From Escherichia phage ZCEC10: 44,776 nt of DNA. The notes beneath the pieces were generated by a model that ran no database searches, was not told the origin of the DNA, and saw only the letters and a list, made by a program, of their open reading frames with translations. Shown piece after piece: positions 2,934 to 44,776 of this stretch. Position numbers and translations under genes: made by a program. Position 1 is the stretch's first letter, and each line of letters opens with the position of its first letter. Location: the sequence record NC_073075; one strand, written 5' to 3'.

Positions 2934-3110
2934 TGCATAAAGTAAGCGGGACAGAAAGCGGGACAAACAAGGGGCGGGACAAAGCGGGACAGCACCCCCG
3001 TCCCGCCCCGGATGGCGCGGCCTGGCGAGGAGCGGGACAGCGGGACAGCACCCCAGTCTTTCAGACTAGACGGGGGGTCAATGGCCCCCCTCGTCTGAGA
3101 CTGCATAAAA
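2934..3110. repeat. Iteron-rich GC repeat R1 (six GCGGGACA(A/G) units plus long imperfect hairpin), paralogous to 20084..20253
   Basis: About 90 percent identical by eye to the second copy; both begin TGCATAAAGTAAGCGGGACAG and end in the hairpin cagactagacgggggg...cccccctcgtctgagactg. Confidence 0.8.
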
Positions 3111-19623: not shown

Positions 19624-19937
19624 TTGAGGCGGCGCGACGCTTTTATGGCCCGCCGCCACCCTCCGAAGATTTAGCCGCAAGTTTATGGGGAGCGGCCCCC
19701 GAAGATGTTTGTCCGCCTGTTGCGCTATGGCCCGACAACGCGAAGGTAGTCGCAGTCTTCACAGATTGCTCCACGCAATGGCGCACCGGATTTGGTGGCG
19801 CATACGGCATCGACTACGGCGTGCTGGCGTGGTTATTTAAGATGCACGGTATCGAAAACGAGCAGCGAGCGTTTAAAGATATCAAGCTAATGGAACGAAT
19901 CGCGCTTGATGAGATGGCGCAGCAGAACCCCGCATAA
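19261..19937 (+). CDS. Tail assembly chaperone GT-like fusion made by programmed -1 frameshift at 19614..19620
   Basis: Slippery heptamer A_AAA_AAC immediately before the G stop; the -1 frame is open for 105 more codons to TAA at 19935..19937 with no ATG start of its own. Confidence 0.6.
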
Positions 19938-19943
19938 TGAAGC

Positions 19944-19973
19944 GGGACAAAGCGGGACGTCCCGCTTTGTCCC
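19944..19973. repeat. Perfect 30-bp palindrome GGGACAAAGCGGGAC|GTCCCGCTTTGTCCC
   Basis: Arms are exact reverse complements with no loop; built from the same GCGGGACA unit as the iteron repeats. Confidence 0.8.
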
Positions 19974-20083
19974 TACCTGTAAAACCGCATATCTAATCAC
20001 TATTATTGCATAAACTCAAAGCGGGACAGGCGGGGCGTCCCGTTTTGTCCCACCCCGAAATGTGCATACCTATTCGAATTTCG

Positions 20084-20253
20084 TGCATAAAGTAAGCGGG
20101 ACAGAAAGCGGGACAGCCAAGGGGCGGGACAAAGCGGGACAGCACCCCGTCCCCGCCAGTGCTGCCGCGGGTTTTAGCCGATCGGGACAGCGGGACAGCA
20201 CCCCAGTCTTTCAGACTAGACGGGGGGTCAACGGCCCCCCTCGTCTGAGACTG
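20084..20253. repeat. Iteron-rich GC repeat R2, paralogous to 2934..3110
   Basis: Same unit order and terminal hairpin as R1. Confidence 0.8.
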
Positions 20254-38202: not shown

Positions 38203-38481
38203 CTATGCGACCAATTCAGCAACCAATAAATCACAGTCGGCGATGTTGTCTATAACGCGAACGTCCGCGCCGCGGCGGGCCATCCGCTCATGTTCACGTA
38301 CCTGGTGCGGCTTCGGTTTTCCTCCGGGGCGCTTCACTTCGACGAACACTATTTTGCCGTTGATGATGATAATCAGATCGGGCGCACCTGCGCGCCCCTC
38401 CCATGCCACTTTTCGGCAGAATCCGCCGACGGCTTTAACCAACTTCATAAGGTGACTTTGGATCTTGCCTTCTGGTGTCAT
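38203..38481 (-). CDS. VRR-NUC domain nuclease
   Basis: 92 aa; PDLIIIINGKIVFVEVKRPGG is a PD-(D/E)xK core typical of VRR-NUC; start overlaps polymerase stop. Confidence 0.7.
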   Translation of the reverse strand: MTPEGKIQSHLMKLVKAVGGFCRKVAWEGRAGAPDLIIIINGKIVFVEVKRPGGKPKPHQVREHERMARRGADVRVIDNIADCDLLVAELVA

Positions 38482-40772
38482 TATTTTCTGTACCTGTACA
38501 TGATGTCGCCTTCCGCGGCAAGCGGGAAGCCTTTCGCCCAAATAGGCAGGTCGCACATCAGCGCGCAAAGCTCCTCGGTCGTGTAGTCGTCGGTGTCCGG
38601 CACTTCGGTTATCAGTTCATCGTGAACGGACAGTACGATCTCATAGCCCGCAGCCTCAACGCCGGGCATGGACCACGCGAGGATATCGCGACACAGCGCC
38701 TGTACGATGTTTTCCGTCAGTTTGCCGCCGTAGGTGTACTGGAACCCCCACTGGCGCGTCGTCTGATTCTCGCCCTGGTATTTGATGCGGGTACTGGTGC
38801 GCTTCTTGCCGGTGTCTTCGTCGATCTCGGTCGTGACAGACAGTGCGATGCCTGGGTAGCTCATTATGCGCCCTGACGGCAACTCAATTTTAAGCCACCA
38901 CCCTGCCGCGTTCGGGTCGTCTCGCTCCTCGTCGAAGGTTGGGTCATGCTTCGCCTTCGTTCTAACAATTTTGAGCGCTTTTCTGCCGTCCGGGCGAACG
39001 TTCGCGCCCGCCCAGTATGCTTTGCCCGGATTGCGGATTGCACACAACACCGCGTCCTCAAGCTCGGCCCAAAAGGCTACCGTCTTCGGGTGAGCCTCAC
39101 GCCACATACGTTTGATCGCGTCACAAGTCAGCCACACGTTTTTAGGCAGTATGTAAGTCGGGCGCTCGTCCTTCTTGCCCGGCTTCGGTGGGCGCTTCGC
39201 TTCGTTAATGCGGGCGTACTCATAACCGCGTTTCGCCGCCGCCCAAATGTGATCCGGGAACGTGCCTTTCATAACGTCCGCCATAGTGTAAAGGTCGAGG
39301 CCCAGGTTTTTAGCGAACTGCAAGAACGCCGCGACGCCGCCACCATAGCCCAGTCCCAATTCGCACGCCTTACCGATCTGGCGTAAGTCCTTGCGGTTAG
39401 CTTTGATGTAATCCGGGTCAAGGCCGAACATTTTACCGGCAGTCTCGCAATAGATATCTCGTCCGGCCTTAAACACCATTAGCGCGGTTTTCTCTCCCGC
39501 GATCCAGGCAAGCCCACGCCCTTCCACGTTGGAGTAGTCCGCTACGACAAACTTCTTGCCCTTAGCCGGGATAATGCACCCGCGAACGGTCGAGGCTGTC
39601 AGCTTAGATATGTCATACGCCCAGTGCGCGGTCCCGCGTAACAGGGAATTGATGCCGTTGGTGAGCATGTGCGACCGGACCCAAAAAGCAACGTCGCTCT
39701 CGCCTTCGCGGCGTTTAATCTTCCCTTCGTGGTCGTCGCTATACTCGCCGCGTGCCAGGTTTTGAGGCTGGAAGCCTTTACCCGCCCAGCGTAACGTGCG
39801 CTTTGCGCCACCATACTGAAGACACCCACGGCGGCGACCATCGGCGGAGAGGCCATTAACGAGCGGATTGTACTTAGTCGATGCCGTTGATGACGCCCCG
39901 AGGCGCATTTCGATAAGCGCTTTGCCCTCGTCTGGGAAGTCCGGGTCTTCCAGTAGGTCGTTTAGCGTGGATTTCTGCGCGTTGTGTATTGTGAATGCTG
40001 GCGCAATATCACGCAGGATTGGCAGGAAGTCATTGCCGGTCAGCTTACCGCCAAATCGCTCCCAGGCTTCTTCCTTCAATTCTTCCTTATGCGCCTGCAC
40101 CGCTTTGATCGCGGCGTTCGCCAGGTCAACGTCCACATAGAAGCCTCGGTCATTAATCATCTGGTCGATGAGCAGGATTTCGTCTTCCTTCGGTGAGTTG
40201 CCCCAGTCCGGTATGCGCCAGTAGACTTCACGCATCGCGATAATATCCAGCGCGGCATATCGCAGAAATTTGGCCCATTCTTCAGGGTGAGTCTCGCGCG
40301 TGTAGCGGCGTATTTTGTAGGTCTTAGGGGTAGGCTTACAGAATCGTTTGATCAGCGCCTTGCCTGCCTTATCCTTCGCGTGCTCTGCGTCAACGCCCAG
40401 CACCTGACACTGCATATCGAGGCTGCCTGGCAGCGCGTGCCGAAAGGCCATAATCATGGTGTCTTCGATCTGGCTTACCGGCAGGTCAATACCCCACTTC
40501 TCACGGATAACCAGGCGGTCAAACAGGAGGCCGTTAGCCATCACGATTTTTGCTTTCTTGCGGGATACCTGACGGAGCGCCTTGCGCAGTTCACGCGGCA
40601 TTGTCGGGGATTCAGTGGCATCCCATGTCTGCACGCGGCCCTCGTCGATGGCGTATGTGCAAATCATAATCGCGGTCGATGGGTGTTCTGCGTAGGCGTA
40701 AGCGCCTACTTTCTTCAGGTCCACATCGCTAAATGTCTCGGTGTCGAGAAACAGACGTTCGAAGTCTTTCAT
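38481..40772 (-). CDS. Family A DNA polymerase with 3'-5' exonuclease domain
   Basis: 763 aa; Exo I motif FLDTETFS near N-terminus; Pol A motif C LSVHDELITEV. Confidence 0.9.
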   Translation of the reverse strand: MKDFERLFLDTETFSDVDLKKVGAYAYAEHPSTAIMICTYAIDEGRVQTWDATESPTMPRELRKALRQVSRKKAKIVMANGLLFDRLVIREKWGIDLPVSQIEDTMIMAFRHALPGSLDMQCQVLGVDAEHAKDKAGKALIKRFCKPTPKTYKIRRYTRETHPEEWAKFLRYAALDIIAMREVYWRIPDWGNSPKEDEILLIDQMINDRGFYVDVDLANAAIKAVQAHKEELKEEAWERFGGKLTGNDFLPILRDIAPAFTIHNAQKSTLNDLLEDPDFPDEGKALIEMRLGASSTASTKYNPLVNGLSADGRRRGCLQYGGAKRTLRWAGKGFQPQNLARGEYSDDHEGKIKRREGESDVAFWVRSHMLTNGINSLLRGTAHWAYDISKLTASTVRGCIIPAKGKKFVVADYSNVEGRGLAWIAGEKTALMVFKAGRDIYCETAGKMFGLDPDYIKANRKDLRQIGKACELGLGYGGGVAAFLQFAKNLGLDLYTMADVMKGTFPDHIWAAAKRGYEYARINEAKRPPKPGKKDERPTYILPKNVWLTCDAIKRMWREAHPKTVAFWAELEDAVLCAIRNPGKAYWAGANVRPDGRKALKIVRTKAKHDPTFDEERDDPNAAGWWLKIELPSGRIMSYPGIALSVTTEIDEDTGKKRTSTRIKYQGENQTTRQWGFQYTYGGKLTENIVQALCRDILAWSMPGVEAAGYEIVLSVHDELITEVPDTDDYTTEELCALMCDLPIWAKGFPLAAEGDIMYRYRK

Positions 40773-40939
40773 TGCTTAATCCTCACTACGGCGTCAGCGC
40801 TGCCGATCATGGAGAAGATGCCGTCTGACAGGGCGATCTCTTCGCCGTTGTTGCGAATCTCGGCAACCGTGAAATATTCCCCCAGTAGCTTGGACCATAC
40901 TTGCATTCCGACTTTTACTTCGCTGGCTTTAATACGCAT
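40769..40939 (-). CDS. Hypothetical small protein (56 aa)
   Basis: ATG at 40939 just downstream of a minus-strand terminator; ATGA overlap with the polymerase start. Confidence 0.4.
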   Translation of the reverse strand: MRIKASEVKVGMQVWSKLLGEYFTVAEIRNNGEEIALSDGIFSMIGSADAVVRIKQ

Positions 40940-40954
40940 TTTTCGTTGTCCTAT

Positions 40955-40978
40955 TAAAAAGCCCGCATTAAGCGGGCT
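40955..40978 (-). terminator. Minus-strand rho-independent terminator after the SSB-like gene
   Basis: Stem agcccgc/gcgggct with loop atta, T-run on the minus strand. Confidence 0.6.
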
Positions 40979-40997
40979 TGAATAGTGGGCTTTGCCC

Positions 40998-41783
40998 TTA
41001 ACGGCGACGACGTTTACGTGGTGCTTCGTCTTCGTCGTCTTCGTCCTCATCTTCGTCATCGCGGGACTTGCGGCGTTTGCGAGGTTTTTCATCTTCCTCA
41101 TCGTCGTCGTCATCGCGGCGCTTGGATTTCTTGGACTTGCGCGGCTTGTCATCTTCATCATCGTCATCACGACGTTTTGACTTCTTAGCCTTGCGCGGTG
41201 CTTCGTCTTCGTCGTCGTTGTCCAGGTCTTCATCGGAGCAAGAAGACCCGCCACCCCCGAAGGCTTCACCGTCATCACGGAAGCGTAAACCCAGCAAGCC
41301 AGCACCGAGTCCCTTGCCGTTGGTGTTGTTCCACGCCCAAATATCAAGGGACACGTTGCAATAACAACCAGAGTAGATCTCCTGGCCTTCAATCTCGTCG
41401 CCTTCTACGGTCAGACCCTGTTCGGTCTGCTTCTCACCGAGTGACGTTTGAATGTTTGGCTGTTTGAACGATTTAGCGTTGATGTACAACATGCCTTCGA
41501 ATTCTTCAGTCACTTCGTCGCGCTCGTCACCGTCGCGGACTGCGCATTCCTTCGAATCCTGGGCGTAGTGGCGGTCCATCCACTTATCGGCATTCTTCTC
41601 GGATTTCAGCTTGTCGGTGAGCACTGCGCGCGCTGCCGCTTCCACTTTGTCCACCTGCGGATCTTCTTTATCCAGAAGAATCACGGCACGATATGCCGGT
41701 TTTTGTCCATCCTGTTTAGGGGTGTCACGTTCCCAAATTTTCAGGAAGCATACGCGCACATTTTTCAGGTTGACTTTAGCCAT
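40998..41783 (-). CDS. Single-stranded DNA-binding protein-like (T7 gp2.5 / DUF2815-type) with a long acid/basic repeat tail
   Basis: Start MAKVNLKNVRVCF with GAGGAA RBS; position between exonuclease and polymerase; C-terminal 80 aa of alternating DDDDEDD and KPRKSKKSKRR blocks. Confidence 0.6.
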   Translation of the reverse strand: MAKVNLKNVRVCFLKIWERDTPKQDGQKPAYRAVILLDKEDPQVDKVEAAARAVLTDKLKSEKNADKWMDRHYAQDSKECAVRDGDERDEVTEEFEGMLYINAKSFKQPNIQTSLGEKQTEQGLTVEGDEIEGQEIYSGCYCNVSLDIWAWNNTNGKGLGAGLLGLRFRDDGEAFGGGGSSCSDEDLDNDDEDEAPRKAKKSKRRDDDDEDDKPRKSKKSKRRDDDDDEEDEKPRKRRKSRDDEDEDEDDEDEAPRKRRRR

Positions 41784-41873
41784 TTTCCAATTCCTCATTC
41801 TCACATGTATCGGGGTTATTGGAAGCCACCCCGTTCGGCTTGGTTGCTAATCTACTTGGTTGCGCCTAAGCGG

Positions 41874-42116
41874 TCAAGCATTTTCATTAAAAAGATTTCT
41901 GGTAACGTAGTTGGTGGCGTTATCGATCCAGCTTAACGGCGGGCGATTAATGTTCTTCTCCACCCAATCGACGGCAGCGTCGCTATAACCGTCGTCCAGC
42001 CAGCGGGTTGGATGACGAATCATCCAGGCCACCATTAACACGCCTTGCACGCAATGCAGGAGAAAGCCCAGCGCGCCGATAACAAACATCAATAAGATTG
42101 CGAATACTTTATTCAT
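41874..42116 (-). CDS. Small membrane protein
   Basis: 80 aa with N-terminal TM (FAILLMFVIGALGFLL). Confidence 0.45.
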   Translation of the reverse strand: MNKVFAILLMFVIGALGFLLHCVQGVLMVAWMIRHPTRWLDDGYSDAAVDWVEKNINRPPLSWIDNATNYVTRNLFNENA

Positions 42117-43539
42117 TGCTTAAGTCCTCGTCAGTAGCTTCAGACCACGCAGGGCGCGGGTCGTCAATTGGTGCTAATACAGGTTTAGCCGGTGCGCGCG
42201 TGATTTTATCACACAACTTCGCCCACACTTTCGGCTTCTCGTCCTTAAGTACCTTCTCGGCATCCGTAGGACTGAGCAATGTTTCTTTGTACATCACATC
42301 GCGCTTGATCCGGGCCTTCGTGAAGATTTCAATCACTTCGCTCTCGTCCGCCCACTTACGGATCCCTTCCTTACCGGCAACCATCTTGAGGCCCAGCGAT
42401 TCGCCATCGCCCGCCATGACCGCCTTGAATACCGCGGACTCGATAGCCTTGATGTGCTGGCGCATTGCGTCCAGGCCTTCATAAGCCTTGCGAAGTTCCG
42501 CCGCGCTCATAGCTCCGGGGGCCGCTTCTTTCTTACCACGCTTCGCACGTCGTGCCGCCTTCCTGGCTTCGCGGGCCATATTGCGGTCATGGTTGGCGCA
42601 TTCTTCCTCTGTCGCAATACTCACGTCGTCGCCCAGGTCTTCGTCGGTTGCCGTTGGGGGTGTCATCGTGTCGATTGCGGCCTTAGCGCGGGCACTACAC
42701 TGATCCGCAAATCGACACCACTGGCACGCATCAACGCTGGGCCGGAAGTCTGCGCGGGTGAGTCCCTTCTTGCCGCGGGAGTACGCTTCCAGGGCGGCGA
42801 CAGCACGCTTGGACGCAAACTTCGCGAATATCTCCAGGGCTTCTACCGTAATATCCCACTCCGACGCCCCGCCGCAATACGGCTGGAAGATAACCAGGCG
42901 CACGGTCGTAATGTCGTACATGGTTTTCAGCTTGCGCAGCAGGCCCAGCGCATACAACATAAGCTGTTTGTTCTCTTTCGCCTCGACCTTATGCCGCCCG
43001 GTCTTCAGGTCGCCAACAATCAGCATGTACGTCCCATCGGTCTTTTTCATGACCATGACCATATCGGCAGTACCGAACGTTTTAATCCTGTTGCCGTCGA
43101 TCTCGTAGCCTGAGTGAAGGACGCGGGTCAGATCGGCGCGCATCTCAAGCTGGACAAACTCCGCCACTTCGAGGAGCGGTCGCCAGTGGTCGATGTACGC
43201 GTCGCACTGTTTCACCATGTCGTCGTTGACCAGTACGCCGCCTTTCGGTGCTTTAGGGTGTGCCTTTACCGGCCCCTTTCCTTCGTTCTCGACGTAGCAC
43301 CCTTTATACGTCTTCGCGGTTATCAGCTTCTCACCGGCGATAATGCGGTTTAGCACCACCTCCGATACGGTGTGCATACTCGTACCGTTAATCGCGGCTT
43401 GCCCGGATTCGTTCGGGATATCTTTTTCAACCACCAGGGCGGCGGGGCAACCCATCCACTTTTTAGCACCAGATGGCCCAAGTAATGAGTGTTCCGTATT
43501 GCTGCCGGATTGCGTCTTACGTTTTGGTTTAATCGCCAT
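42109..43539 (-). CDS. Cas4/RecB-like exonuclease (DUF2800-type) with Fe-S cysteine cluster
   Basis: 476 aa; nuclease core IVGDLKTG; cysteine motif CQWCRFADQC; typical partner of the SSB-like and Pol A genes. Confidence 0.7.
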   Translation of the reverse strand: MAIKPKRKTQSGSNTEHSLLGPSGAKKWMGCPAALVVEKDIPNESGQAAINGTSMHTVSEVVLNRIIAGEKLITAKTYKGCYVENEGKGPVKAHPKAPKGGVLVNDDMVKQCDAYIDHWRPLLEVAEFVQLEMRADLTRVLHSGYEIDGNRIKTFGTADMVMVMKKTDGTYMLIVGDLKTGRHKVEAKENKQLMLYALGLLRKLKTMYDITTVRLVIFQPYCGGASEWDITVEALEIFAKFASKRAVAALEAYSRGKKGLTRADFRPSVDACQWCRFADQCSARAKAAIDTMTPPTATDEDLGDDVSIATEEECANHDRNMAREARKAARRAKRGKKEAAPGAMSAAELRKAYEGLDAMRQHIKAIESAVFKAVMAGDGESLGLKMVAGKEGIRKWADESEVIEIFTKARIKRDVMYKETLLSPTDAEKVLKDEKPKVWAKLCDKITRAPAKPVLAPIDDPRPAWSEATDEDLSNE

Positions 43540-43718
43540 TATTCCACCCGTGTAAACTGGACAATTACATATTTCACATTAGCCATGCCCGCTTTTTCGA
43601 CGCGGCGCTTAACTTCATTTTGTGCGTCAACAAAGCAATTGCTTGCGTTGGTGTTTTCAACAATAAAAGAGCAATGGTCGTCTAATTCGTGGCATGTTGC
43701 CAGGACGAAGAATTTCAT
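43539..43718 (-). CDS. Hypothetical early protein (59 aa)
   Basis: ATG at 43718 with GGGAGA RBS. Confidence 0.4.
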   Translation of the reverse strand: MKFFVLATCHELDDHCSFIVENTNASNCFVDAQNEVKRRVEKAGMANVKYVIVQFTRVE

Positions 43719-43969
43719 TATTTTGTCTCCCAGCGGTCGATTGTTTTTGCTTCTGATGCAACTGCGAAGCGAACAAATTCCAGATTGGAATCCGCCCAAA
43801 TATAAAAGTCGGGATTAATAAAGGTGGTGCGCTTAATTTGCGCGGGGGTATTGCGGCGCTTGTCTATTACGGCAACGCGTGACTGAAAATTGCCGATGCG
43901 TTCGAATAGCCAATAATATGGGCGCTGGTCGCGGGAGTCCACCGCCTCGATTAGCGTGAAACGTGCCAT
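43718..43969 (-). CDS. Hypothetical early protein (83 aa)
   Basis: Clean ORF, stop overlaps downstream start. Confidence 0.45.
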   Translation of the reverse strand: MARFTLIEAVDSRDQRPYYWLFERIGNFQSRVAVIDKRRNTPAQIKRTTFINPDFYIWADSNLEFVRFAVASEAKTIDRWETK

Positions 43970-44017
43970 TGTCTCGTCCTCTAAAAAGAGGCCCGCAGAT
44001 TAGCGGGCCGGAATATA

Positions 44018-44530
44018 TTAATCTTCCAATTCGAAATAGGTTTCGACGATTTCTTTTAGCTCTGTGTGGAAGTCTTCGACGTCGTCATCTTCCAGCTTGG
44101 CGATTGATTTGATCTCGAACGACTCCAGCAGGTCGTCGAATTCGTCGTTCGCGTCGTCGTCATCACCGCCAGCGATAATCGCGGCATATTGTTTGATCTC
44201 GTCGCGCATCTCTGCCAGCGGATCGGCATCTTTCTTACCTTTGCCTTTCGCCGGTGCTTTCTTAGCCTTAGCCGGTTTTTCGTCTTCGGCATCGTCGTCG
44301 TCTTCTACGACTTCTTTTTTGGCCTTGCCTTTCGCCGGGGCTTTTTTAGATTTAGCCGGTTTTTCGTCATCGTCGTCATCGTCGTCATCTTCGACAACTT
44401 CTTTTTTGGCCTTAGACGGCTTCTTGTCTTCCTGCTTACCAACGGCAGCGCCAGCGGTTTCATAATGTTTAGCGATGGTTTCCAGTGCTACTACGCCGCG
44501 AGTGATCAGGTTTACGATTTGCTCAAACAT
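44018..44530 (-). CDS. Acidic early protein with tandem acid/basic repeats; first gene of the leftward operon (alternative start at 44710)
   Basis: 170 aa from the ATG at 44530 with GGAG RBS; two near-identical 25-aa units (KKEVVEDDDD..EKPAK.KKAPAKGK.KK); Asp/Glu-rich C-terminus. Confidence 0.55.
   Translation of the reverse strand: MFEQIVNLITRGVVALETIAKHYETAGAAVGKQEDKKPSKAKKEVVEDDDDDDDDEKPAKSKKAPAKGKAKKEVVEDDDDAEDEKPAKAKKAPAKGKGKKDADPLAEMRDEIKQYAAIIAGGDDDDANDEFDDLLESFEIKSIAKLEDDDVEDFHTELKEIVETYFELED
44225..44410. repeat. Tandem direct repeat (about 87 bp, two copies) inside the acidic early gene
   Basis: Two adjacent units sharing ...ggccttgcctttcgccgg..ctttttta.(a/c)(t/c)ttagccggtttttcgtc... 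Confidence 0.6.
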
Positions 44531-44699
44531 GGTATATCTCCGATTGGTTAAGTTTAGGTGTCGGCAGTTAACTTCGTCGGTGGCCTTAACATATTGCCAG
44601 GTTACGCGTTCTCCCGTTCGGGTAGTGGACCTGGTTATATCATCACGGTTGGGAATCCTGACACTTCGATCCGGCCCCTGCGTTGCCCCTCTCCAGTTT

Positions 44700-44776
44700 G
44701 CGTCCTGCATCCTGTCGACGGGGGGAATAATAGATTGGTTGCAGGATGGGTGTCAACAACTAATTTCAAAAAAAAA
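44700..44776. repeat. Terminal direct repeat, right copy
   Basis: Exact match to 1..77. Confidence 0.85.
44727..44756 (-). promoter_or_regulatory. Sigma70-like early leftward promoter (TTGACA-18-TATTAT, minus strand) inside the terminal repeat
   Basis: Minus-strand -35 TTGACA at 44751..44756, -10 TATTAT at 44727..44732, spacer containing TGCAACCAAT; identical copy at 28..58. Confidence 0.45.

Follow-up and report, generated by a model that had tools for sequence, protein, structure and literature searches.

The closest described relatives of the protein treated here are the phage SSBs (proteins that bind single-stranded DNA, ssDNA) T7 gp2.5 and Enc34 ORF6 (PF10991/DUF2815). In the crystal of Enc34 ORF6 the acidic tail is inserted into the beta-sheet groove of the neighbouring molecule, and removal of the tail leads to binding of double-stranded DNA (dsDNA) (PMC5686142). 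The tail of gp2.5 regulates binding dynamics and contacts both the polymerase and the helicase (PMC10359462). The window analysed here, the whole stretch of 44,776 nucleotides presented as Escherichia phage ZCEC10 (NC_073075), is the complete 44,776-bp genome of the ZCEC12 record (OK310513.1, genus Dhillonvirus), rotated and reverse-complemented. It encodes an SSB of this type and, as the first early gene, a protein of 170 aa, and both of these contain a segment in which acidic and basic blocks alternate. The reading that is considered reasonably probable is that both segments are disordered, blocky polyampholytes which have arisen by slippage or unequal recombination, the one in the SSB being a variant of the acidic tail and the one in the early protein a tether.

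Like T7 gp2.5 and Enc34 ORF6, the SSB of the window has a homologous OB-fold core, a disordered D/E-rich C-terminal tail and a proximal acidic motif, and it can be predicted that its tail competes with DNA for the groove and makes contacts with partners in the replisome (PMC5686142, PMC10359462). Unlike in these proteins, the tail is here 3-4 times longer, has four Lys/Arg blocks, ends in RKRRRR and varies between strains in the number of its modules.

In T4 gp32, a basic N-terminal 'B' domain (LAST motif, (K/R)3(S/T)2) gives cooperativity and an acidic C-terminal 'A' domain gives autoinhibition and partner binding. Also here one SSB joins K/R/S-rich basic elements with acidic ones, and the stretch RKSKKSKRR resembles a LAST-type motif. 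However, the elements of gp32 are at the opposite ends of an unrelated fold while here they alternate within one tail, and there is no homology. Like the linker of the E. coli SSB, the tail is disordered, lies between the OB fold and the end of the protein and varies in length and composition, and the charge blockiness is high; the E. coli linker differs in being Gly/Pro/Gln-rich, not a polyampholyte, and capped by the tip DDDIPF. The early protein has in common with T7 Ocr and ArdA an early promoter-proximal gene and a very acidic domain, but it has no sequence or fold similarity to them, belongs to a conserved replication module and contains a basic linker resembling histone H1 and AT-hooks. 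The linker sequence KPAKSKKAPAKGKAKK is of the same compositional type as the K-A-P repeats of histone H1, AlgP and the HU C-terminus and as the AT-hooks, from which it differs by interleaved poly-Asp blocks. The R-G-R-P core flanked by K/R that defines an AT-hook was not found in the linker of ZCEC12, which has KPAKSKK and APAKGKAKK and no Arg, and DNA binding by it is putative.

Charge-block segments of the SSB and the first early protein

Residues 10-200 of the SSB match PF10991 (Enc34_ssDNA-bd, E=1.2e-31, Pfam), the profile of its homologues matches the Enc34 ORF6 structure 5odj (E=6e-32), and the protein also matches phrog_112, the Gp2.5-like SSB/annealing proteins. It is the same protein as the 'Gp2.5 family' SSB of SECphi18, for which the same start is used (10.1101/2022.08.27.505566); the real gene encodes these 261 aa and is not the 268-aa GTG open reading frame (ORF) (Table 1). 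The AlphaFold2 model, built on an alignment of 34 sequences, agrees with Pfam and the 5odj profile in giving the homologous core of a T7-type SSB, with a predicted local distance difference test score (pLDDT) above 90. The tail, residues 176-261, has pLDDT values of 44-62 and no secondary structure.

The OB core is followed by a GGGG hinge, the stretch SSCSDEDLDN and four modules of the form (D/E)n-[AK]PRK..(K/R)n, so that the tail reads GGGGSSCSDEDLDN, then DDEDEAPRKAKKSKRR, DDDDEDDKPRKSKKSKRR, DDDDDEEDEKPRKRRKSR and DDEDEDEDDEDEAPRKRRRR. Tandem Repeats Finder (TRF) detected within it a period of 54 bp at 41093-41218, with 2.3 copies and 72% matches. The last 81 residues consist of 46% D/E and 35% K/R with a net charge of -9, and the protein thus has the unstructured acidic C-terminal segment of T7-type SSBs, here rich also in K/R. 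An aromatic or hydrophobic acidic tip of the gp2.5 type (...DGDF) was not found at the end of the tail, which reads APRKRRRR.

The early protein consists of an N-terminal amphipathic helix, a disordered linker with two tandem repeat units, and an acidic C-terminal domain, in which AlphaFold2 placed helices at residues 104-121, 125-137 and 148-166. The net charge per residue of residues 102-170 is approximately -0.30. TRF detected the repeat in the gene with a period of 84, 2.0 copies and 85% matches (44241-44413). The units had been described as 25 aa long and encoded by an 87-bp tandem repeat; they are in fact 29 and 28 aa, and the 87 bp apply to unit 1 and not to unit 2, which has 84 bp. When 30 members of the early-protein family were searched against Pfam at E<=1, only low-complexity noise was obtained (BUD22, DDRGK).

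The alternating acid/basic repeat segments reported in the initial annotation were found in both proteins, and both are predicted to be disordered on the basis of AlphaFold2 pLDDT. The charge patterning parameter kappa was 0.54 for the SSB tail, as compared to 0.10±0.04 in shuffled sequences, and 0.44 for the early linker, as compared to 0.12±0.05, the observed value being reached by 0/1000 shuffles in both segments. Charged residues make up a fraction of 0.83 of the SSB tail and 0.63 of the early linker, with net charges per residue of -0.12 and -0.01, respectively. Six occurrences of the pattern [DE]{3,}x0-2-P-x-[KR]-x0-1-[KR][KR] were counted when the 44.8-kb genome was translated in six frames, and all these are within the two genes.

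In local protein alignment the tail and the linker scored 134, while shuffles that hold the acidic and the non-acidic blocks in place scored 101.9±7.2, with 0/1000 reaching 134. Since the alignment exceeds these block-preserving shuffles, the order within the blocks is shared beyond what composition gives. The nucleotide sequences did not show a corresponding similarity: their local alignment scored 48, and synonymous-codon resamples of the same peptides 47.5±5.8 (217/500 reaching 48), and the longest exact word common to the two, 13 nt, is typical of the resamples. The DNA is thus no more alike than the similarity of the proteins predicts, and the module exchanged by recombination that the initial annotation had suggested is left unsupported. 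A recent copying of the repeat module from one gene to the other, to which the shared EKPxKSKK and D-rich peptides might point, is highly improbable, as the nucleotide score equals the resampling expectation, there is a systematic difference between the basic blocks (rich in Arg/Ser in the SSB, in Ala/Lys/Gly and without Arg in the early protein), and both proteins have lineage-specific charged regions already in relatives of ~40% identity. Recent DNA exchange between the two genes was rejected on the basis of the control with synonymous-codon resampling. The resemblance of tail and linker, an acid block followed by x-P-(K/R/A)-K-x-K-K, is in the preferred reading due to parallel evolution under similar constraints, or is ancient, and is not the result of recent DNA transfer.

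Copy number of the repeats and the forms of the SSB tail

The number of repeats varies within the genus. In 12 Dhillonvirus loci from IMG/VR, 11 intact SSBs of 224-261 aa were found with two, three or four modules, the SSB of the twelfth locus, L011, being cut by the contig end. The same 12 loci included 11 early proteins of 142-179 aa, and L005 gave none. Altogether the Dhillonvirus SSBs have 218-261 aa and 2-4 modules, with three in SECphi4 and four in SECphi18 and ZCEC12. In 39 isolates the length of the match to the early gene was 426-627 nt. The acidic blocks in the early linker, counted from 116 cluster representatives, numbered zero in six, one in 54, two in 53 and three in three; among those without any are P0086 (a 44.8-kb contig), P0093 (a 44.3-kb contig) and P0097. 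The N-terminal helix and the C-terminal domain of the early protein are nearly invariant among the relatives. The early protein of SM_A2 contains three identical units, which points to a recent expansion. Both regions thus show the in-frame head-to-tail DNA units and the copy-number polymorphism of slippage repeats, with 0-3 copies in the early protein and 1-5 in the SSB.

Two of the sequences in this comparison have peculiarities of their own. The contig of L011 (IMGVR_UViG_3300045988_003101) ends in the SSB tail at ...AVSYTHLRAHET; this peptide results from translating the Nextera adapter CTGTCTCTTATACACATCT and is thus adapter contamination. In the early protein of KS_S9 (L017 4501..5130), 209 aa in length, ~36 aa at the beginning of the C-terminal domain are duplicated internally (DADPLAEMRDEIKQYAAIIAGGDDDDANDEFDDLL twice), and this may be true variation or an error of the assembly.

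No correlation between the module number of the SSB and the unit number of the early protein was evident in the 14 genomes in which both genes were complete, the combinations including 4 modules with 1 unit, 2 with 2, and 4 with 3. The initial annotation had itself named free variation of the repeat number, without effect on fitness, as an observation that would speak against it, and variation in number was found among the natural variants. It is also what would be expected if the segments were neutral low-complexity expansions, tolerated products of slippage with spacing as their only function, and the linkers with zero acidic blocks would fit the same explanation. This is nevertheless quite unlikely, as both families have kept their blocky acid/basic character across deep divergence, the same syntax has arisen independently at least two or three times in SSBs, and no SSB of the large clade described below has lost all of its basic blocks.

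The differences between units are mostly synonymous: in the early protein 8 codons differ synonymously and 4 nonsynonymously, and for the SSB these counts are 7 and 5. This indicates selection on the peptide instead of a DNA motif, and consequently disfavours the explanation that the tandem repeats work at the DNA level, as iterons or an origin, with the peptides as by-products. In phage lambda the origin lies within gene O, and the tandem repeats of the window are likewise inside genes of a replication module. Even so, iterons are here extremely improbable: besides the units differing mainly at synonymous positions, the copy number ranges from 0 to 3-4, and distant relatives keep the charge pattern and not the DNA or peptide sequence. 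Iterons at the DNA level were rejected because of the mostly synonymous unit differences together with the unfixed copy number.

The tails of the wider family were surveyed from 95 PF10991 homologues with a recognisable core end. In 55 of the 95 the tail is of the canonical type, short (median 23 aa) and purely acidic (e.g. ..DDFDDL..DDDF), and in 53 of these 55 the last residue is hydrophobic or otherwise uncharged. The remaining 40 tails contain 1-5 basic blocks and have a median length of 61.5 aa, and half of them end in K/R. In the neighbour-joining tree of the SSB cores the Dhillonvirus proteins were placed in one large clade, extending to ~44% identity, in which all tails are acid/basic. 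Two further acid/basic lineages (P0196/P0223/P0227/P0231 and P0195) were nested among the proteins with acidic tails and have kept the hydrophobic tip, and these use the same (D/E)n-RPRR syntax, e.g. EDEEDRPRRKRR / DEDEDEDDRPRHRKSR ... DDDDVV. The tree topology thus suggests that the acid/basic tail is a derived state of the SSB acidic tail, and that it has arisen at least two or three times.

The large clade has kept the ancestral motif as (S/T)D(E/D)DL directly after the hinge. This motif is present in all relatives with an acid/basic tail, and its counterpart in the short acidic tails is DDFDDL. Judged from this conservation, SDEDL is probably the ancestral partner-binding acidic motif.

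The early-protein family and the possible functions of the charge blocks

Clustering of the early-protein family at 90% identity gave 179 representatives, and at 50% identity there were 66 among 1.84 billion proteins. All the members are built of three parts, a hydrophobic N-terminal helix (M[FL]-[ED]-[QK]-..LLERFVVAHELIAAN), a charged low-complexity linker and the C-terminal domain. Runs of EPEPE/EEEE are frequent in the linkers, as are basic segments in which AT-hook-like cores (KRGRP or KRGRK) occur, and canonical cores of this kind were present in distant homologues and analogues (KRGRPAKSK, PKRGRKP, PRRRGRKPK).

In four lineages with 37-45% identity (L014, L015, L022, L027) the early protein is the first gene of a module. 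It adjoins there a divergent helix-turn-helix (HTH) gene and the primase-helicase, and lies upstream of DUF2800, an acid/basic SSB and PolA. In L029 a remote homologue is found upstream of both DUF2800 and PolA, and the module there lacks a PF10991 SSB. In the modules with an acidic-tail SSB, a small protein with an N-terminal helix, a linker and a helical C-terminal domain is encoded directly upstream of DUF2800. The first-gene proteins of L020/L024, L026, L031 and L032 were rejected as members of the family, as hhalign gave probabilities of 0.3-3.5%, and they are only positional and architectural analogues; that of L030 was classed as an analogue by layout only. The linkers of the analogues in acidic-tail modules are not blocky polyampholytes and their C-terminal domains are not acidic. 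The basic fraction of the linker was 0.18-0.28 in six acid/basic lineages versus 0.04-0.16 in four acidic-tail lineages, a correlation that rests on two or three independent origins. Judged from gene order, the early protein belongs as a conserved accessory to the module of primase-helicase, DUF2800 nuclease, SSB and PolA. Two other features were observed in distant relatives of the module: a SNF2 helicase with an intein-like Hom_end_hint domain (L015 7045..9546), and a bAvd and reverse-transcriptase pair downstream of PolA that resembles a diversity-generating retroelement (L026 12483..14218).

The conserved position bears directly on the suggestion, made in the initial annotation, that the acidic early protein is a DNA mimic acting against restriction. 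In this explanation the early protein would be an Ocr-like mimic directed at restriction or DNA-sensing defence, and the acidic blocks of the SSB would be related mimic modules. The gene is indeed the first one behind a near-consensus sigma-70 promoter, in the same position as T7 gene 0.3, and the folded domain carries the dense negative charge of a mimic at residues 102-170, a property that is necessary and not sufficient. The location as the first gene of a conserved replication module argues against an Ocr-like mimic, since the synteny is conserved at ~40% identity, unlike that of the typically variable anti-defence genes. Also the C-terminal domains of the positional analogues in acidic-tail modules are non-acidic, and the acidic blocks of the linker are dispensable, natural variants having 0, 1, 2 or 3 of them. 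No sequence or fold relationship to the known mimics Ocr and ArdA was found. Furthermore, Dhillonviruses are reported to be sensitive to restriction-modification (PMC11990801), the known anti-Tmn protein of Dhillonvirus is a different protein (PMC11846954), and the published table of SECphi4/6/18 escape mutants includes no mutations in the early protein or the SSB tail (Stokar-Avihail et al., 10.1101/2022.08.27.505566). The mimic explanation is therefore unsupported and regarded as very unlikely.

The similarity of the two segments could also be due to a common partner, or to a charge-block code by which the SSB tail and the early linker bind the same surface (e.g. patches of PolA or the primase-helicase), bind each other, or co-assemble into a hub or condensate on phage ssDNA. 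The acidic C-terminal tails of T7 gp2.5 and gp4, which bind the same patches of gp5, offer a precedent. In the window the motif-level likeness exceeds the block-preserving shuffles and the motif is confined to the two proteins; the proteins co-occur in every examined lineage with an acid/basic SSB (ZCEC12, L014/L015, L022, L027), and the basic fraction of the linker follows the SSB tail type in the 10 lineages. In L020/L024, an independent lineage, the end of the first-gene protein is ...EEDDVV, which resembles the tip DDDDVV/DEDDDI of the SSB. On the other hand, the copy numbers of the two proteins vary independently in the 14 genomes, the acidic blocks of the linker can be wholly absent, the homologue in L029 occurs in a module without a PF10991 SSB, and the correlation across lineages comes from so few origins. 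A common partner is for these reasons unlikely, though it retains some weight. A more specific form of it would make the charge blocks an address code common to the SSB tail and the first-gene protein, by which the two co-assemble through their complementary blocks into a hub or condensate on phage ssDNA. Such a code would have evolved independently in PF10991 SSBs, two or three times at the least, and always together with a matching charged, AT-hook-like linker of the first-gene protein; this form is distinctly unlikely.

A better candidate than the charge-block repeats for a signal of a shared partner is a short motif common to the SSB and the DUF2800 nuclease. The motif, (S/T)D(E/D)DL or DEFDDL, ends the nuclease and begins the tail of the cognate SSB, and the two co-vary in nine lineages other than that of ZCEC12 (loci L014, L015, L020, L022, L024, L026, L027, L030-L032). 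The nuclease ends ATDEDLSNE* in ZCEC12, where the SSB tail has CSDEDLDN; the corresponding pairs are VSDEDLA* and ATDDDLGD in L014/L015, ASDDDLA* and ATDDDLDG in L022, VDEFDDLSA* and ADDFDDIEE in L032, IEDFRDL.. and ADDFAGM in L031, and FEDLAGAEDLV* and SDEDFEEL..EEFV* in L026. The covariation suggests that both motifs dock to the same site of one partner in the replisome or in recombination, and it has a parallel in the shared acidic tails of T7 gp2.5 and gp4. The most conserved stretch of the early protein, DEFDDLL, was considered as a mimic of DDFDDL in the SSB tail. This was rejected, because the stretch is in helix 2 of a confidently modelled three-helix bundle and the positional analogues show a hydrophobic core pattern at the equivalent residues (..AVELLGQFGV.., ..AVKAILTKYGV..). 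On the model the match is best explained by core residues together with an acidic surface.

If the two segments are polyampholytes produced by slippage or unequal recombination, short in-frame tandem duplications would expand and contract by these processes. In the SSB they would have formed a lineage-specific extension, added after the ancestral acidic motif SDEDL of the T7-gp2.5/Enc34-type SSBs. The acidic blocks would take the role of the single acidic tail, occupying the basic ssDNA groove in cis or in trans, and they may set the discrimination between ssDNA and dsDNA and act as docking sites for basic patches of replisome partners. The Lys/Arg/Ser blocks and the RKRRRR end would add contacts to the DNA backbone or to the acidic blocks of neighbouring SSBs, and, in analogy to the basic cooperativity element of T4 gp32, these added contacts might adjust both cooperativity and annealing. 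The segment of the early protein would be a flexible tether, possibly weakly DNA-binding, that joins the N-terminal helix to the acidic three-helix domain. What the analysis itself supports is the predicted disorder, the charge patterning, the variation in copy number, a conservation that is at the level of the protein and not of the DNA, the distribution of the families and the synteny; all functional roles of the charge blocks are inferred only.

Some of the observations weigh against this reading of the two segments. The shared motif order is ~4.5 standard deviations above the block-preserving shuffles, and similar composition is by itself insufficient to account for it. The SSB ends in RRRR without the acidic/aromatic tip that is needed for partner binding in gp2.5, and therefore the analogy to gp2.5 may not carry over. 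The basic content of the linker, by following the SSB tail type, could mean functional coupling and not independent drift. The known SSB mutations of Dhillonvirus defence escape (T56P, F106V, N152H, promoter) are all outside the tail (10.1101/2022.08.27.505566) and are uninformative on its function.

Genome setting, leader RNA and significance

The coordinates of the features are given in Table 1. The stretch 40000-44776 was matched by 178 phage records, mostly with 90-95% identity. The order of the features on the minus strand is the promoter, a leader of ~190 nt, the early gene, the terminator, two small genes, the DUF2800 PD-(D/E)XK nuclease, a small gene, the SSB, a 56-aa gene and PolA, and the HTH gene and the primase-helicase are divergently transcribed on the opposite side of the promoter region. 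With the near-consensus promoter and the intrinsic terminator enclosing it, the label of first early gene given in the initial annotation is plausible.

Table 1. Positions of the features in the window.
Feature	Position	Strand	Remarks
PolA	38481..40772	minus	
56-aa protein (MRIKASEVKVG...)	40769..40939	minus	between SSB and PolA
Gp2.5/Enc34-type ssDNA-binding protein gene, 261 aa	40998..41783	minus	start MAKVNLK; PF10991, phrog_112, PDB 5odj
SSB tail module 4, DDEDEDEDDEDEAPRKRRRR, residues 242-261	41001..41060	minus	C-terminus basic, not acidic/aromatic
SSB tail module 3, DDDDDEEDEKPRKRRKSR, residues 224-241	41061..41114	minus	
SSB tail module 2, DDDDEDDKPRKSKKSKRR, residues 206-223	41115..41168	minus	in the 54-bp TRF array
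SSB tail module 1, DDEDEAPRKAKKSKRR, residues 190-205	41169..41216	minus	
Conserved proximal tail motif SDEDL, residues 183-187	41223..41237	minus	kept in acid/basic-tailed relatives
OB-fold core, residues 1-175	41259..41783	minus	AlphaFold2 pLDDT >90 for residues 1-170, beta-rich fold
DUF2800 PD-(D/E)XK nuclease	42109..43539	minus	
C-terminal tip TDEDLSNE of the nuclease	42112..42135	minus	same motif as in the SSB proximal tail
Intrinsic terminator	43990..44009	minus	directly 3' of the early gene; 7 G-C pairs and a T-run
First early gene, 170 aa	44018..44530	minus	phrog_3127, E=1.8e-53; Shine-Dalgarno GGAGA, ATG at 44530
Acidic three-helix C-terminal domain, conserved, residues 104-166	44033..44221	minus	AlphaFold2 pLDDT ~90; many invariant columns
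Disordered polyampholyte linker, residues 25-101	44228..44458	minus	AlphaFold2 pLDDT <50; length hypervariable among relatives
Repeat unit 2, EVVEDDDDAEDEKPAKAKKAPAKGKGKK, 28 aa, 84 bp	44231..44314	minus	compared codon by codon with unit 1 (see text)
Repeat unit 1, EVVEDDDDDDDDEKPAKSKKAPAKGKAKK, 29 aa, 87 bp	44315..44401	minus	84-bp TRF array
N-terminal amphipathic helix, FEQIVNLITRGVVALETIAKHY, residues 2-23	44462..44527	minus	AlphaFold2; invariant L8, R11, V13, A15, E17, I19, A20
Leader element, ~150 nt	about 44556..44720	minus	core 44643..44670
Sigma-70-type promoter of the early gene, TTGACA-18-TATTAT	44727..44756	minus	11/12 matches; kept in relatives

Some of the annotated reading frames of the region appear to be in error. 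In the ZCEC12 record a 230-aa early ORF (44018..44710, minus) begins in the untranslated leader and is likely a misannotation; it is not a real coding sequence (CDS), because indels in the relatives break its frame. A 207-aa CDS of the same record (40769..41392, minus) overlaps the SSB tail in another frame, and only its last 56 codons are real and conserved. The alternative frame across the SSB tail was rejected as a gene, P0122 and P0125 being frameshifted SSBs that run into it. The 56-aa protein is mutated (E21 frameshift, upstream changes) in SECphi4/6/18 defence-escape mutants, where it is listed beside the PolA R171L rows (supplementary table of 10.1101/2022.08.27.505566). A lookalike of this protein, recognised by eye (MMDKIIKMSEVKPGMMV...VEVRIK), is found directly downstream of the leader RNA in the Drexlerviridae loci L034 and L036.

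The leader of the early gene contains, directly after the promoter, an element that is nearly invariant in 13 of the 15 Dhillonvirus loci and cleanly absent in L006 and L011, and occurs in one copy in this genome. It was also found in Drexlerviridae (PHB17, MartyMcPhage, slyngel and KMI8; Changchunvirus, Warwickvirus, Hanrivervirus and a Klebsiella phage are represented), in Murrayvirus Lumpael and in several IMG/VR contigs, the further loci with the element being L033-L037, L042, L043, L046, L050, L052 and L057. A -10-like box always directly precedes the element, which lies in a gap of ~240 nt and has unrelated genes downstream of it. RNAalifold predicted from 12 diverse copies 32 pairs, 12 of them with compensatory double changes, and no match was found in Rfam 15. 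From this covariation it looks like an undescribed structured phage leader RNA, a candidate antiterminator, riboswitch or small RNA; one idea is put-like antitermination, given the terminator right after the early gene. Elsewhere in the window, clusters of the motifs AAGCGGGACAGA / AGCGGGAC were observed in the late region at 2944-2992, 3031-3049, 19932-20114 and 20183-20199, including a 78-bp repeat with GCGGGAC-GTCCCGC palindromes (TRF), and these may be regulatory or terminator-like repeats.

Both repeat regions are hot spots for assembly and annotation errors, as seen in the frameshifted SSBs, the spurious overlapping ORFs and the over-extended early ORF. Members of the small, uncharacterised family represented by the early protein are a constant part of a phage replication module that is widespread. 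An acidic C-terminal tail with a hydrophobic tip is regarded as a hallmark of bacterial and phage SSBs, and it has here been replaced by a long, strain-variable acid/basic polyampholyte ending in poly-Arg. This concerns a large clade of T7-type SSBs, to which belongs the SSB of Dhillonvirus, a trigger of Retron-Eco8, Hachiman and ShosTA; the nearly identical protein of SECphi4/18 triggers Retron-Eco8 as an SSB (10.1101/2022.08.27.505566). The natural allelic series of 1-5 SSB modules is usable for biophysical tests, and the acid/basic tail would alter the models of tail autoinhibition, cooperativity and partner recruitment in these phages.

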